Positions 5,114 through 64,000 of a DNA stretch of 64,000 nt are shown here, one piece after another; position 1 is the first letter of the stretch, and every line of letters starts with the position of its first letter. The DNA lies in NCBI GenBank assembly GCA_951406725.2, contig OX597823.1, forward strand, positions 11,346,001-11,410,000, in the 5' to 3' direction. The notes beneath the pieces were generated by a model. The model was not told the origin of the DNA. It searched no databases and saw nothing but the letters and a program-made list of their open reading frames with translations. The stretch is from Octopus vulgaris (taxonomy: Eukaryota). The position numbers and the translations under genes are program-made.

Positions 5114-5308
5114 GGTCCCGGGTTGAGTCGGGGTTAACCACAGTAAATAAGGTACTCAATACATAGCAGAGTAAATTAATTTATTATATAGAAGGAGCTT
5201 CTACAGGACTAGAACTGTTTCATTCAAAAGAAATCATCAGGAGCTTCCTGATGATTTCTTTTGAATGAAAAAGTTCTAGTCCTGTAGAAGCTCCTTCTAT
5301 ATAATAAA
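5114..5308. mobile_element. Inverted-repeat element with hammerhead motifs (Penelope-like pLTR or retrozyme-like remnant)
   Basis: 63-bp arms at 5180-5242 and 5246-5308 with 1 mismatch; each arm carries a CTGATGA..GAAA..GTA core. Confidence 0.65.
5240..5294 (+). ncRNA. Type I hammerhead ribozyme motif (mirror copy on - strand at 5194-5247)
   Basis: Stem I ggagcttc/gaagctcc, core CTGATGA, stem II ttc-tttt-gaa, GAAA, stem III (c/a)ag..ctg, GTA cleavage triplet. Confidence 0.75.
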
Positions 5309-13299: not shown

Positions 13300-14963
13300 C
13301 AGACATACCTCACCCTATGTTGTTAATTGGTTCCAGGAATCATAAATTAGGTCAAAAAATGACTAAAGTTGAATTAACTTGTCTCTAGGATAGGCCAAAT
13401 TTACTTGTCTCTAGGCTAAACCAATAATAACCATCCCCAGTTCTGTACTTTATTTATGAATGCATTTTCAATAATACTTGGTTAATAAAAACCTATTTTA
13501 ACCCTTTAGTGTTCAGATTACTCTGTTAAATGTAAGGTTTTTTTATTTAAATTGTTTTGAATTAATCATGCATTACCTTATAGCTTTGAGGTTTCAATGG
13601 TGTGATTGTTTATTTTTAGACTGTCAATGTAGGTTAGGTGTGAGAGGCTGGATATGGCCAGTTTGAATATAAAATATGTAGAATATATTGGGCCGGATTT
13701 GGCCAGTTTAAACACTAAAGGGCTAAGCTTACAAACAAATAATTTTTATTTTTTAATACAGTACAGTAAAAAAAAAAGTATTCTAAATTTACAAATACGA
13801 TTTGGTAGTGTTTACCATATATCGTGGACGCTTTATTTAGGAATGCAGTTTGCAATAAGACATGGTAAAATAAAAGCCATTTTAAGCTTAAAAAATAAAT
13901 TCAGTAATTATTATTATTTTGCAATAGTAAAAAAACTACATTATTTTAAATTTACCAATACATACATACAATTTGGTAGTTTACATTGCAGATGTAGATG
14001 GCTGTTGATTGTCAACATCAGCAGCTGATTCTGGCTGTTCTTGTTTTTTGATGCAATTAAAAGACCAGTTGAGAGTTCCTTGAACTGTCTTCTTCTTATA
14101 AGGAGCAAAAGCTTTGTGACAAGCTCCCATAATCTTGGAAAGGCATTGAGTATTTGGATCCAAATCCTTGAACATAGAAAGACCTTTTTCGATATATGCA
14201 ACTGCTTGCTGCATTTTCTTAATGGTAAAGTGACGTGGCTCAGGTTCGACTTCCTCTTCTTCTTTATTTTGCTGCTCGAGAACCTCTATCCAATCTTTGT
14301 TCGTCAGGGGCTGCTTGTCTTTTTCAAATAAATCTGTGAAATCCTCCTCCTCCAAATCCATTTCCAGTTCTTTGCTCGTAGTCACCAATGTTTTGTTGAT
14401 GGCAACATTATCAAACCTCTTAAAATCATTCACGAATTGTGGGCATAGCTTCTTCCATACACCATTCATAGCCTTGCTCTGTACATCATTCCATGCTACT
14501 GCTATGTTCTGTACAGCCTTGTAGATATTGTATCTCTTCCAAAAGTCACAGTGTGTTGGACTCATCAAGATCAGGTGCAGTAATTGCTTGCCATAGTATT
14601 CGCTTCATATAGTAATGCTTGAAGACAGCAATTATTCTCTGATCCATTGGCTGCAGAAGAGACGTGGTGTTTGGAGGGAGGTATACAACAGTAACATTGG
14701 GGTCAAAATCTATGATGTTTTGCAGGTGGCCAGGAGCATTATCTAAGATAAGTAGAACCTTAAAAGTAATCTCCTTCTCCTTACGGTACTTCTCTGCTGC
14801 TGGGATAAAATGATTGAAGAACTAATCTTCAAAGACAACAGTAACCCATGATTTTGAATTAGCCATCCATATAACAGTGACAGATGCCTTGGGTGTGTTC
14901 TTCAGGGTACAGGGGTTGTGTGCATGATACACAAGCAATGGCTTTAACTTAAAATCTCTTGCA
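13300..14963 (-). mobile_element. Tigger/pogo DNA transposon remnant (DDE_1 transposase pseudogene plus one TIR)
   Basis: Minus strand KLKPLLVYHAHNP..W.ANSKSWVT..KVLLILDNAPGH..VVYLPPNTTSLLQPMDQ..DFWKRYNI..AWNDV..VWKKLCP with stops and frameshifts; TA-cagacatacctc end resembles the Tigger1 TIR CAGGCATACCTC. Confidence 0.92.
13502..13722. mobile_element. piggyBac-type MITE family A nested in the Tigger remnant
   Basis: TTAA-ccctttagtgtt...aacactaaaggg-CTAA. Confidence 0.88.
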
Positions 14964-38498: not shown

Positions 38499-38790
38499 CA
38501 TATTTGTTTTTATTCTGGAAGTATTCAGTCAATAGAATACTTCCATGTTCCTCGTGCTCAGAGAATATCTTAAGAAAAGAACTGAACAGCAAAGGAATAA
38601 AAATTTGATCAGAGTGATGAAATATTTAATTACTTTCTTTTCAATTTTGGATGCACTTCATTCATTTTACATTTTGCCATTAGAAATTTTCCTTCAAAAT
38701 ATTGCACAGAATGATCATCAGTTTATCAGAAGAATCCCTTACTCATAACTGAAGCACCCACTCCATCAAAAGAAACTCCCTTATTACAGA

Positions 38791-39178
38791 CTAGCAGTAT
38801 CGCCCGGCGTTGCTCGGGTTTGTAAGGGAAATAACTATATAAGCATTTTTAGAGATGTAAAGTATAATAGCCATCTCAATATGGCTAACCACAAAGGGGG
38901 GGTGTTACTGTAGCTTTTTACGTTCTGAGATTTAATAATACATTTTTAGAGAGTTACTTCCCTTATATAATAGCGAAAAAATGCATTAAAAATGGGAAAA
39001 AATGATGGTAAATTTGTTTTTAAATCGTAGACTCATGCTAATACCCAGAAGGGCTCGATATGAATCACGACTATAAGATACCCGGTTTTGGTTAAACTGC
39101 ACCGCAAAATGTGGGAGTAGTTAGGAATCTAAATTGTAGGAGACAGACAGCACACAACCTCACTTTTATATATTAAGA
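38791..39178 (-). mobile_element. Non-autonomous Helitron (388 bp)
   Basis: Minus strand begins TC(ttaatatataaaag), ends in subterminal hairpin cccgagcaacgccggg then CTAG; inserted between A and T with no TSD. Confidence 0.9.
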
Positions 39179-39444
39179 TATTCAATGTTGCAGCAGTTAA
39201 CAAAGCTGTGTTTAAATAAAAAAAAAGATTAAAAACAAACGCAAAAGAACTTCAAATCAACATATGATCCCAAAGATGAAGATGCTTAGAATTACTGGAT
39301 ACAGAAATGTTGATCTGCTGAAATAGTTCTTTCCCTTAATACTATTCCTCCAAATTCCATCAAAGTAGAAAAAGTCATTTCTATGATAGGCTCTTTGTTA
39401 TACAGTTGTAATGAAGTTTGAGCGACAACATTATCAACAATATG

Positions 39445-48470: not shown

Positions 48471-48534
48471 ATGAGGCTGCCTTGGCGATTTTTCATTATT
48501 TTGGCGGTTCTGGTTTCTCCGACATGGGCTGAAG
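48471..48534 (+). CDS. Probable first coding exon encoding a signal peptide (secreted or membrane protein)
   Basis: ATG..MRLPWRFFIILAVLVSPTWA/E(G) has n/h/c regions with a T-W-A cleavage motif, followed by a consensus donor AAG/GTAAGT (phase 1). Confidence 0.7.
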
Positions 48535-54424: not shown

Positions 54425-55470
54425 GTTCCACAGGGCACTGTCTGAGGGCCACTGCTGTTCATAGTGGCCCTTTCAGACGTGCCCTCAATTGCTAAGATGG
54501 CCACCCTTGCTAGCTATGCAGATGACACAAAAGTCTCTCAGACAATACAAAACCCTGGAAATATTGCACATCTGCAACAGGAGTTGGATACAATATACAG
54601 GTGAGCTGAGGACAACAACATGCAGTTTAATGCTGGGAAGTTCCAAGCCCTGCGCTGCCGACACACAGAGCTGAACGACATGCAAACCGGATACACTGGC
54701 CCAATTCCAGAGTCAAAATCAGTGCGTGACCTGGGCATTGACATGAGCAATGATGCATCTTTCCAACTGCATATTGCCAGTCTGGTAATAAAATGCAGAC
54801 GGCTAGCTGGATGGATCCTCAGAACTTTCAGAAAGAGAGAAGGAGACACTGATGGTCCTTTGGAAGACATTCGTCCTCAGCCGCTTGGACTACTGCGCCC
54901 AACTATGGTCACCACACAATATAAAGTCAACAGCAGAGCTTGGAGTTATCCAACGAAGCTACACTCAAGATTGTCTCAATGCAACATATCAGCTACTGGG
55001 AAAGACTGAAAGTATTAAAACCCTTCTCCCTGGAGCGAAGGCGGGAGAGATATGCAGTGATATACATGTGGAAAATCTTAGAGGGTCTTGTCCCGAATTT
55101 TGGCATTGATTGTTACCCCAACAGCAGAATGGGGTGCCACTGCATGGTGCCAAAGATCCCAACATCAACATCAAAATACAGGACCAGATACTGCAACGGC
55201 TTGGGTTTCAGGGGACCACAGCTCTTCAATATCCTTCCTAAACGCCTGAAAGACCTGCATGGTTTGAATGTGGGTTTCTTTAAAACTAAACTGGATCTCT
55301 TGTCAGGGGTTCCAGATGAACCTACCTCTCAGCAGGAAACACAGATGCAGGCAGCGGCGTCGAACTCCCTGGTTGACAAAGTACCACGTATCGGAAGTGG
55401 TTTCACATACAAGTGTAGCTCATTCAACGGTGGTGCGACAGCATGGCCACAGCTTTCGGGCTGAAGCATG
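54425..55470 (+). mobile_element. 5'-truncated LINE family 1 (CR1/L2-group) reverse-transcriptase pseudogene
   Basis: VPQGTVL.PLLF..YADDTK..MQFNAGKFQ..VRDLGI..RLDYCAQLWSP..SLERRRERY..GPQLFNILP; stops and frameshifts; 3' tail present. Confidence 0.93.
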
Positions 55471-60360: not shown

Positions 60361-60711
60361 GCATGTAGATTGAGAGAAAGATAGTGTGTGGAGTATAAAT
60401 ATATTGATTCTGTTTTTATCTTTCAGAAAATTTTTATAACGAATGATTACATTTATGTTTAAATTCATAATAACATATTGTGTTTTGTTATAAGAAAAGT
60501 TTGGCCAGGACCTCTTTTTTTCTAGGTCCCTGTGAAAGTGATGGTATTTACCTTAACAGAAAGAGGTGTTTAGTACCAAGTCAAATGTTTTTACTGTTTT
60601 TTAAAAAAAAAGTCAAAATGTTTTTTTATGAGAAAGCAGCATAAGTGATTTTAGGGTTTATTAACTTTATTGTCACTATGTTGTGCAAAAGAAAAGTTTA
60701 CTTTTCCACTT

Positions 60712-60913
60712 GAGGCACAAGGCCTGAAATTTTTTTGTGAGATGGCCAGTTGATTAGATCGATTCAGTATGCAGCTGGTACTTAATTTATGGACATTGAA
60801 AGGATGAAGGGCAAAGTCGACCTTGGTGGAATTTGAACTCAGAACGTAAACACAGATAAAATGCCGCTAAGCATTTCGCCCGGCATATTAACATTTCTGC
60901 TAGCTCGCTGCCT
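60712..60913 (-). mobile_element. SINE family B-related subfamily (different 3' tail)
   Basis: Reverse complement has gcgagctagcagaaatgtta..gagttcaaattcc..gtcgactttgcccttcatcctttc. Confidence 0.8.
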
Positions 60914-61243
60914 TGCGAAAGAAAATTTTTGTGGGAAAAATATGGTTCCTATAATATTTCCTCATGAAGTATCTGTTAGCATAATGCAGGTCTTCTCTGA
61001 GCTTTATATTTTCACATCCAAAGGAAGTCAGAAAATTACTATTTATAAATCTCAGAGAGCTATTCAGCAACAGCACTTTGGAGTGAAGATTATTTGCCAA
61101 CATAACATGGCAGTCCTGGTTTAGGACGAATGTTGCTGTAATTTAACCCCAGGCGACATTGTCTCCAGTTGGCTATTGGACATGATCCATGTCCTTATAT
61201 TTTCAACAAGGGAATCTAGCACCCCCACTCAATTCCAAAAAAT

Positions 61244-61290
61244 ATCTGTGTATCGTGATTTCCAGGTTATTTCCCTTCATCAGCACAGAT
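61244..61290 (-). ncRNA. Minimal type I hammerhead ribozyme motif
   Basis: atctgtg-CTGATGA-agggaaataacctg-GAAA-tcacga-TA-cacagat: 7-bp stem I, ATA triplet, short near-palindromic stem III. Confidence 0.75.
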
Positions 61291-61511
61291 GTCTCCTGGG
61301 GTTAAATTACAGCAGCATTCGTCCTAAACCAGGACTGCCATGTTATATTGGCAAATTATCTTTACTCCAAAGTACTGTTGCTGAATGTATCCTATTGTGA
61401 GATTTACAAATAGTAATTTTCTAATTTATAGATCAGTGACTAGTTGTCACTTTGAAAACTATATATTTTGAACAGGAATTTGGCAGCGCCACCTCTAGCC
61501 GAAAAATTTAT

Positions 61512-61557
61512 TCTGTGCTGATGAAGGGAAATAACCCAGAAATTGTGGATACACTGA
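61512..61557 (+). ncRNA. Second, more decayed copy of the same hammerhead motif
   Basis: tctgtg-CTGATGA-agggaaataaccca-GAAA-ttgtgga-TA-cactga. Confidence 0.6.
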
Positions 61558-62034
61558 TATTGTTTTGAGCTGAATAGGGGGTTCTAGGTTCCCTTGTTAG
61601 AAAATATAAGGACACAGATTGTGCCATATAGCCAGCTGGAGACGAAGTCTCCTGGGGCTAAATTACAGCAACATTCGTCCTAAACCAGGACTGCCATGTT
61701 ATGTTGGCAAACAATCTTTAATCCAAATGAAGACAAGTAAGATAAAGAAAAGTAATTGTGTCTTGAGTATTTGCTTTTCATCATTGTCCTCTCTATTAAC
61801 ATCTAATGTGCTAACATTAATTAGGAATTTAATTAAATATTCAGTGGACCCAACTTTGATAATGACAGCATCACACTGAATCTTTTGTAGATTTTAACCA
61901 GCACACTCTTGTCCAATATTTTACGTTTGTTCTTTGAATGTTTTAAAATTACATTTTTTCATGTCATCTCTGCTAAAGCTCACAGTTTCCAATCCAGAGG
62001 ACACAATCAGTCATAACATTTCTCTTTGAAAACT

Positions 62035-62305
62035 AATGCCTTTTGAGTGAATTTGGTAGGTGGAAACTGTGTGGAAGCCTGTTGTGTGAGTGTGTGTGTG
62101 TGTGTGTGTTTGTCCCTCCCACACTTCTTGACCACTAGTGTTGGTTTGTTTACAGCCCCATTACTTAGTAGTTCAGCAAAAGAAACTGATAGAATAAGCA
62201 CCAGGCTTAAAAGATAAGAACTAGGGTCAATCTGTTTGACCAAACCATTTCAAGGTGAGTGCTGCAGAATGGCACATTCAGAGACTGAAACAAGTAAAAG
62301 ATGGA
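62035..62305 (+). mobile_element. SINE family A, old diverged copy
   Basis: Recognisable central and tail motifs. Confidence 0.75.
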
Positions 62306-62560
62306 AGATCCATTAATCATTAGAGATTAACAATCCTGTAAGGGAAAATTTGGTTTAGAGTTTCAGGGTTAGGGTTTAAGATTAGGATTTTGGGTTAAGG
62401 TGTAGAGTTTAGAGTTACTCAGACAAGGATAGCCAATATAAAGATCTGGGAAAGGCATTGAAATTGGACTTTTTAAAGGCAAATTTATGGCTTTATGTAC
62501 CATTTGTCTCTTTCAAAATAGTGTTCTCCCTGGTTGGTACATCCAACATTTTCTTTCCAG

Positions 62561-62710
62561 ATTTGGAATGCATTTTCAAAGGCAGTGCATGGATGTCATT
62601 GCTGATTTTCTTTGACACTGTCTTTTGTCTGAAATTATTGGCCTTTCAGGGTGGATCTCTAACATGGGCACAACAAAAGTCTTCAGAGACCAAATTTGAA
62701 GATAAGGAAG
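62561..62710 (+). CDS. Low-confidence candidate phase 1-1 exon (150 nt)
   Basis: Acceptor ttttctttccAG, donor GAAG/GTAACT, open in the frame compatible with 48471-48534; peptide not recognised. Confidence 0.2.
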
Positions 62711-63301
62711 GTAACTGGGAACAAGAGACATCTCATGCACTGCCAAACTTCTGGCTCTGGAGTGATTCATGAGTACAGTGTCATAGTGCAGCAGCCATGG
62801 TTTAAGCCTCTTTCCTTTGTGCTTATTTTCTCAAATGCCTGAGGACATCCATGTAAAACTCTTTATTAATTCTGATTATATGGAACAAAAACCTGATGAA
62901 TGACACCCTTCCATAAAAAAAAAAAACAACAAACAAAACAAACAAAAAATTAAGACACCTATCACATCCCTTTCATCTGAGTGACTCTGTACTTTTTTTT
63001 TGTGGCTGCAACAATGATCCAACATCCTATGGCGACTACTTTTTTTTGTTTCAACATTGTGACCTTCATAAAACCTGTATACCCATGTTTCTTCCTTTGT
63101 CACATTTTTCCATAAAGTTTTAATCAGCATTTAACCAGTCAAACTACTTGGTAGAGTGGAAGATTAAGTAGCTTGTAGTATTATTAACTTATTCTCTCCC
63201 TTCATGTTTTGGGTCATGACTTTTCTTCTTCTTTGGCAGTTGATAGAATAAAAACTAATCAATTGCTGGGCTGAGCTTGAATTTCATCACCATCCTTTTA
63301 A

Positions 63302-63512
63302 CTCTTTCATTTCTGTATCTATTTTGAGATGCTCTGTTTCTTTCAATAACATACAAAGAATTTAGTAAAATAACTTAATTATCATTATGTAAGTGTTAGG
63401 AACATAAATTGTGACTAAGGTTTGGTGGAAGATTTTAATTCAAAACTTATGAAAACAAGACATTTGTAATACAGAGCCAGAGCTGGTTTCAGCCGGGTCA
63501 GTATTGAAAGGG
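63302..63512. mobile_element. piggyBac-type MITE family B
   Basis: TTAA-ctctttca...tgaaaggg-TTAA; aligns with 63573-63792. Confidence 0.85.
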
Positions 63513-63572
63513 TTAAGCAGGTGTTATTGACCTAAAATTTTGAAGGAAGGTTTTTAACTTAGATCACTTTAA

Positions 63573-63792
63573 CCCTTTTGTTACTGTATTTATTTTGAGA
63601 TGCTCTGTGTTTCTTTCAATTACTTTAAATATAACGAGGAATTTAGTAAAACAACTTAGTTATCTTTAAGCTAGTGTTACGAACATAAATTGTGACTAAG
63701 GTTTGGTGGAAGATTTTAATTCAAAACTTATGAAAACAAGGCATTTGTACTCAGAGCCAGAACCGGTTTCAGCTGGGTTGGTAATGAAAGGG
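63573..63792. mobile_element. piggyBac-type MITE family B
   Basis: TTAA-cccttttgttac...gtaatgaaaggg-TTAA. Confidence 0.9.
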
Positions 63793-64000
63793 TTAAGTTT
63801 AGTTAGAAATCATTATTAGTCTGTTTCTCAATTTCTCTCCCTCTCATATATTTCTACATACCATGGAAGCAACAAAAGCAAAGTGAAATTATTTGGGGTA
63901 AAGTCAAAATACAGGTATCTAATTGTCAAATTTGGTACCTGACATAAATACTTAAACACACACACACACACACTCTCTCTCTCTCTCTCCGGCACACAGT

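Follow-up and report, generated by a model that had tools for sequence, protein, structure and literature searches.

Within the window, as we call the whole 64-kb stretch of Octopus vulgaris DNA analysed here, a region near the right end carries inverted arms like those of a MITE together with hammerhead-like motifs, and the question arises what kind of element has left them there. The original prediction described two arms of ~130 bp, a spacer with a hammerhead on the minus strand and a further unit starting at a hammerhead on the plus strand. We found that 61030–61727 is a single decayed insertion of a 353-bp protein-free repeat, in which an inverted 5'-truncated copy (61289–61030) is joined head-to-head to 1.25 direct copies (61288–61727). 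Its parts are the following:

61016..61030, plus strand: left copy of the target-site duplication (TSD), decayed, matching the right copy at 11/12 positions (13/15 by direct reading)
61030..61289, minus strand: inverted 5'-truncated arm, unit positions 140–353 followed by 1–51, ending at the long (tailed) 3' site
61030..61076, minus strand: Penelope-type tail of ~50 bp; the other end of the insertion has no tail
61245..61289, minus strand: type I hammerhead with intact core and a single CpG change that breaks the palindrome of stem III
61288..61371, plus strand: 3' end of the first direct unit (positions 270–353), 84 bp
61372..61727, plus strand: whole direct unit, ending at the short (tail-less) 3' site
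61512..61557, plus strand: type I hammerhead with intact core, stem III and helix I damaged
61721..61735, plus strand: right copy of the TSD, whose first bases coincide with the short end of the element

The inverted arms are real, as the inverted self-match within 61030–61422 has an E value of 8e-69, and their boundaries had to be corrected: what had been taken for a right arm, a gap and a further unit is one direct run from 61288, which shares 2 bp with the inverted arm where they join and reaches 61727, so that 61422 is no insertion end. The hammerhead expected on the minus strand of the spacer lies at 61289–61245, with its predicted cut between 61251 and 61250. A hammerhead-shaped motif is also present at 61512–61557 on the plus strand (predicted cut after 61551), while the unit thought to begin there begins elsewhere. 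The sequences 61512–61727 and 61289–61077 match at 85.6% over 216 bp, and the inverted arm shows 15/244 non-CpG differences from the family majority. A strict hammerhead scan of the entire window is passed by the minus strand copy only; a search of 60400–62400 against Rfam gave 12 hits at E values up to 10, none of them a hammerhead, and all Rfam matches were rejected as microsatellite-driven or due to chance. The other hammerhead element mentioned in the original prediction could not be identified within the 64-kb window. The end order of the locus is long on the left and short on the right. With the two motifs on opposite strands, both stem III palindromes broken despite intact cores and a paired-fold energy that weakens from -29.3 to -23.4 and -17.2, the copy in the window is likely inactive and probably dead.

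To place this locus in its family we searched the genome (2.8 Gb in 227 contigs), where searches with two parts of the unit yielded 2142 and 1716 first-look candidates; 40 from each search were scored. The family map was built from 54 distinct loci, left after removal of six same-place duplicates from 60; these are the best-scoring matches and not a random sample. The unit of this family, termed A, is 353 bp long with 41% GC. Tandem monomers occur with this period in runs of up to 1091 bp. Some of the tandem arrays are later local duplications. The majority motif (CCCG GAAA TCGCGA TA) equals the ancestral hammerhead with palindromic stem III that had been reconstructed from the two copies in the window, and the ancestral 43-base motif has 20 exact copies in the genome while a control has 0. 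The CpG-type changes invoked for that reconstruction are borne out as well, with CpG bases differing from the majority at 29.5% and other bases at 3.7%, both low estimates because the loci are best matches.

The ends of the copies follow a rule. Two intervals covering 16% of the unit contain 79/94 of the 3' ends and 10/94 of the 5' ends. These correspond to two 3' sites about 52 nt apart, one near position 350 and the other near position 53 of the next unit, while 5' ends are scattered. In family A, one arm is tailed and the other tail-less in all 36 classifiable inverted insertions. In the first set of 34 inverted loci, 25 pairs were classifiable and every one of them combined a short with a long end (16 in one order, 9 in the other; p 4.9e-7), and a set chosen solely by the exact hammerhead (20 loci minus two same-place duplicates) added 18 further loci, 15 of them inverted, with 11/11 classifiable pairs obeying the rule. 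The tail can be carried by either arm. All 50 adjacent inversions are head-to-head and none is tail-to-tail, and the joints overlap by 1–7 nt in 30/50 cases, partly by chance extension. A TSD score of at least 9 was reached by 21/34 inverted loci and by 7/15 in the second set, compared with 1.7% in 300 shuffled pairings; since TSDs flank the pairs so far above the shuffled level, every inverted pair represents one insertion. TSD length varies, mostly between 9 and 15 bp. A pile-up of 5' ends at positions 31–50, which corresponds to one unit length (8/94), was set aside as evidence because the queries select long copies. Clusters of 5' ends were also seen at unit positions 299–310, in a small hairpin, and at 235–240, in a complementary 5-base stretch, which suggests that joints are guided by microhomology.

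As conservation inside a decaying family says little (in family A 11/772 changes in the hammerhead core and 780/25217 in the remainder), relatives were sought. A hammerhead descriptor search returned 706 matches and none for the control. Family B (357 bp, 60% identical to A and collinear with it) was reached via a 34-bp match, families C (352 bp, 87% identical to B) and E (345 bp) via the descriptor search (loci L117–L146 for B, L149–L167 for C, L189–L203 for E, plus L147 and L148). The 11 core bases are unchanged in each of the four families, CTGATGA and GAAA being retained along with the U-H cut triplet. Helix I differs in sequence between the families but is paired in all, while stem III reads TCGCGA, CTCGAG, CTGCAG or CTAG and is a palindrome every time. 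In helix I, 5/6 pairs are changed on both sides between A and B, and 95.6% of the cells are paired vs 23–56% in slid controls (8 A and 8 B natural copies, representing two lineages and not 16 events). Stem II of family A has just 3 pairs and a mismatch. When cut at the predicted site and folded as circles, the units reach z scores of -7.9 (A, 100 dinucleotide shuffles), -7.4 (B) and -7.4 (E). Covariation over the whole rod from A to B is modest, 28/54 changed pairs still pairing (null mean 19.8, max 33), and 19/23 double changes keep the pairing. Families B, C and E share the two 3' ends of A, and by eye the tail rule holds for 5/5 classifiable pairs in B, 4/4 in E and 3/5 in C, where the two others are short/short; this amounts to 48/50 over the four families. 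B copies mostly lie within (TA)n runs, unlike those of A, L148 represents another variant whose period is close to 368 bp, and the window itself holds an old relative of B at 38857–38916 (minus strand, within a repeat at ~38790–39179; 78% over 60 bp) in which no intact hammerhead was seen.

From these data we regard the repeat as, very probably, an animal non-LTR retrozyme with a predicted type I hammerhead that likely depends on a Penelope-like RT-GIY-YIG enzyme for reverse transcription and insertion. Because its insertion ends match Penelope-type ends, the repeat likely spreads with a borrowed Penelope enzyme. In the proposed sequence of events tandem source copies would be transcribed and the predicted hammerheads would cut, likely as pairs via the palindromic stem III, after which monomers may circularise. 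The Penelope enzyme would bind the branched domain in which the two 3' sites lie and would nick both target strands ~9–15 bp apart, priming one strand at the short site and its partner at the long one. Synthesis of the two cDNAs would then converge, with uncut or re-ligated RNA as template, and end at variable positions, after which the cDNAs would be joined, often over a few shared bases. A search for the partner covered 36 GIY-YIG loci (20 plus 16 longer stretches, in which a few related families dominate) and revealed no end homology to the unit. The one 34-bp match from this search belonged to family B and not to a pLTR, and a supposed Penelope body between two same-strand hammerheads 5.9 kb apart was rejected as its opposite-strand frame is LINE-like by eye. 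Intact 781-aa RT-GIY-YIG frames are present in the genome in abundant young elements, and a homologue search with this frame yielded 543 RT-GIY-YIG relatives. Examples are L101–L104 and L113 (e.g. L104:744–5960), Penelope-like elements inserted in (TA)n with terminal repeats 99–100% identical, in which the 781-aa frame follows another one (up to 479 aa) that has no clear Pfam match; the hammerhead scan found none in these loci.

RNA data were analysed next to the genomic copies. Animal non-LTR retrozymes are characterised, among other features, by self-cleavage and by unit-length RNA in linear and circular form. A run search for the unit gave no holder recorded as RNA. In three raw RNA runs with a related label, of uncertain species match and library type, ~2000 reads each were found on both strands, 68–75% of the unit-matching reads continue into unrelated sequence and there is no pile-up of read ends at the predicted hammerhead cut site, which shows that the unit reads in these runs are fragments inside host transcripts. 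At L022:985–2080, A>G (60–65) and T>C (38–50) places outnumber G>A and C>T in runs X21–X23 and some reads carry many changes; this may reflect editing (A-to-I) of the double strand that head-to-head arms would form, but is confounded by differences between copies and species. A location in the first intron of a gene starting at 48471 had been considered probable for the insertion in the window. The signal-peptide-like first coding exon at 48471–48534 (plus strand), followed by a GT donor, is indeed present; a later exon was not found, and reads over 60380–64000 show no exon joint. Elsewhere in the window we noted broken frames resembling by eye a LINE RT end (54605–55461, plus strand) and a DDE transposase end (13984–14604, minus strand), a region at 5240–5300 whose short palindromic inversion (~5240–5250) looks like a hammerhead core, and a highly abundant repeat present as a 281-bp tandem pair (63292–63797). 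A broken frame at L168:5974–8093 (minus strand) looks by eye like a Helitron helicase.

It is possible, if rather doubtful, that the anatomy is that of a retrozyme while the hammerhead plays no part in insertion, circles are never made and uncut tandem read-through RNA is the sole template, an explanation that departs from the preferred one in the circular step only. In its favour, 10/32 unselected arms cross the predicted cut site and just 2 stop within 5 nt of it; the template is thus uncut or re-ligated. The RNA runs without ends at the cut site point the same way, as do hammerhead mutants of a lizard Penelope element, which insert in vitro nonetheless (available sections of PMC11167929). 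The units of one insertion also often differ: at 8 variable sites differences were counted in 16/59 tandem comparisons, leaving out five loci judged to be later local duplications (22/121 with all included), and in 51/188 inverted ones, giving 27% vs 36% between loci. Agreement within an insertion is slightly higher than expected by chance (87/119, permutation p 0.005), at sites that are not independent and that could be hypermutable. The 27% is at odds with rolling-circle copying from one monomer circle and favours mixed or multimeric templates. Against a hammerhead without function stands its conservation, together with the unit-length circular fold, across families just ~60% identical, which implies selection on cleavage.

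The retrozyme reading also has to be distinguished from one in which the unit is a mere pLTR of an autonomous Penelope-like element and the loci are its heavily 5'-truncated ends. The insertion anatomy would be the same, and pLTR hammerheads are described as mostly truncated single copies (available sections of PMC4209133). What makes this explanation improbable is the region upstream of the unit start, where the unit's own end is found for up to three periods. Arms longer than one unit (35/126, max 1091 bp) always wrap into the unit, comparison of 23 5' flanks and of 121 3' flanks revealed no shared body apart from a single pair in each set (the 5' pair has 23 bp in common near the end), no RT body lies beside the unit at 72 loci, and the longest open frames of the unit encode 48 aa in sense and 73 aa in antisense direction. 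Since arms wrap, flanks have no common body and no sense frame exceeds 48 aa, the unit is closed and non-coding and not the end of a longer element. Moreover, its hammerhead has a 6-bp helix I and a short helix II as in retrozymes, whereas pLTR motifs have a long helix II, a type that this genome contains in another family. That separate family of minimal hammerheads, with a 188-bp tandem period and 4998 first-look candidates (e.g. L184–L185, G000:C30:17291510–17292590, and L169–L188), does not resemble A, and its 20 loci showed no RT frame.

We consider it highly improbable that the repeat is a SINE-like sequence mobilised by a LINE, with inversions arising by L1-type twin priming. TSDs of 9–15 bp, 5' truncation and the short overlaps at 30/50 joints would fit such an origin. 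The unit, however, has no poly(A) or simple-repeat tail and gave no tRNA call, and while twin priming on one RNA leads to non-overlapping parts, both arms here copy the same sequence and end at two fixed internal 3' sites. That the element is a MITE or a foldback DNA transposon, whose long terminal inverted repeats happen to come with a hammerhead-like string, is hardly conceivable: the copies do have inverted ends, TSDs and fixed outer ends, but the arms vary from ~40 to >500 bp, the tail sets one outer end apart from the other, 20/54 loci have no inverted arm, units occur in tandem, TSD length is variable and the hammerhead covaries. The original assignment as Penelope-like or retrozyme-like rather than MITE can thus be refined to a 353-bp retrozyme unit, closed and non-coding, whose insertion ends are of the Penelope type.

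The window locus itself is an ordinary decayed copy and the value lies in the end rule at the family level. So far the mobilising enzyme of animal retrozymes has been proposed from co-occurrence and homology, and the octopus families carry a two-start-site footprint for which recent in vitro work with a Penelope enzyme has given an explanation. With thousands of short copies the insertion geometry becomes countable, as an arm with and an arm without the tail in each insertion, and the in vitro system gains from these families a defined substrate RNA and a prediction that is clear. A wider claim might equally well hold or fail, namely that a lineage of four or more retrozyme families, present in thousands of copies, records a near-strict rule in which an asymmetric RT pair primes the two cut strands at different RNA sites (short and long), that animal retrozymes are thereby tied to Penelope enzymes by insertion anatomy, and that some family may still make viroid-like circular RNA in the octopus. 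Standard annotation overlooks the family, which has no Rfam match and mimics a MITE; the word hammerhead is absent from the available sections of an octopus repeat annotation (PMC13282606). In the literature we found no description of cephalopod retrozymes and no count of the tail rule, while repeat libraries and paper supplements may name the family otherwise.

The following comparison with known systems refers to the available sections of the cited papers. Close opposite-strand hammerhead pairs and the palindromic stem III have already been noted (PMC4209133). Penelope-like elements show a tail, often at one end only, an adjacent inverted truncated copy and partial tandems (PMC8557442, PMC3846280), and with the purified lizard Penelope enzyme both strands are cut and extended from two internal RNA starts whose spacing equals the tail, hammerhead cleavage being unneeded (PMC11167929). 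The octopus unit resembles the endonuclease-positive Penelope-like elements in 5' truncation, partial tandems, inverted copy, one-end tail, TSDs of ~8–15 bp and hammerhead (PMC8557442, PMC3846280, PMC11167929), with a tail of ~52 bp in family A and ~42 bp in B compared to 30–40 bp in Penelope-like elements. It differs from them in having no RT frame and in closing on itself; an RT and GIY-YIG frame between pLTRs, by which an autonomous Penelope is recognised, is absent from the unit and beside 72 loci. Vertebrate retrozymes have been proposed to be non-autonomous Penelope derivatives via co-occurrence and pLTR homology, with data mostly from vertebrates (bioRxiv 10.64898/2026.07.22.740005). 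Borrowed Penelope machinery is proposed in both cases, whereas the octopus case comes from an invertebrate and is based on insertion anatomy, no homologous pLTR having been found. The closest relatives are the animal non-LTR retrozymes described by Cervera and de la Pena in 2020, with repeats of 350–390 bp in mussel and 330–350 bp in axolotl and Penelope elements named as candidate mobilisers (PMC7229834). Common to both are a tandem unit of 150–450 bp, a GC content below 50%, the lack of LTR and ORF, long TSDs (>4 bp), a type I hammerhead with short palindromic stem III and a highly self-paired circular fold, here a predicted one. Unlike these, the octopus copies are mostly dispersed, truncated or inverted, and two Penelope-type insertion sites were mapped for the octopus unit, which are not reported for the animal non-LTR retrozymes in those sections (PMC7229834). 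It is well supported that the family joins a known kind, the animal non-LTR retrozymes, to which the counted end rule is a useful addition.
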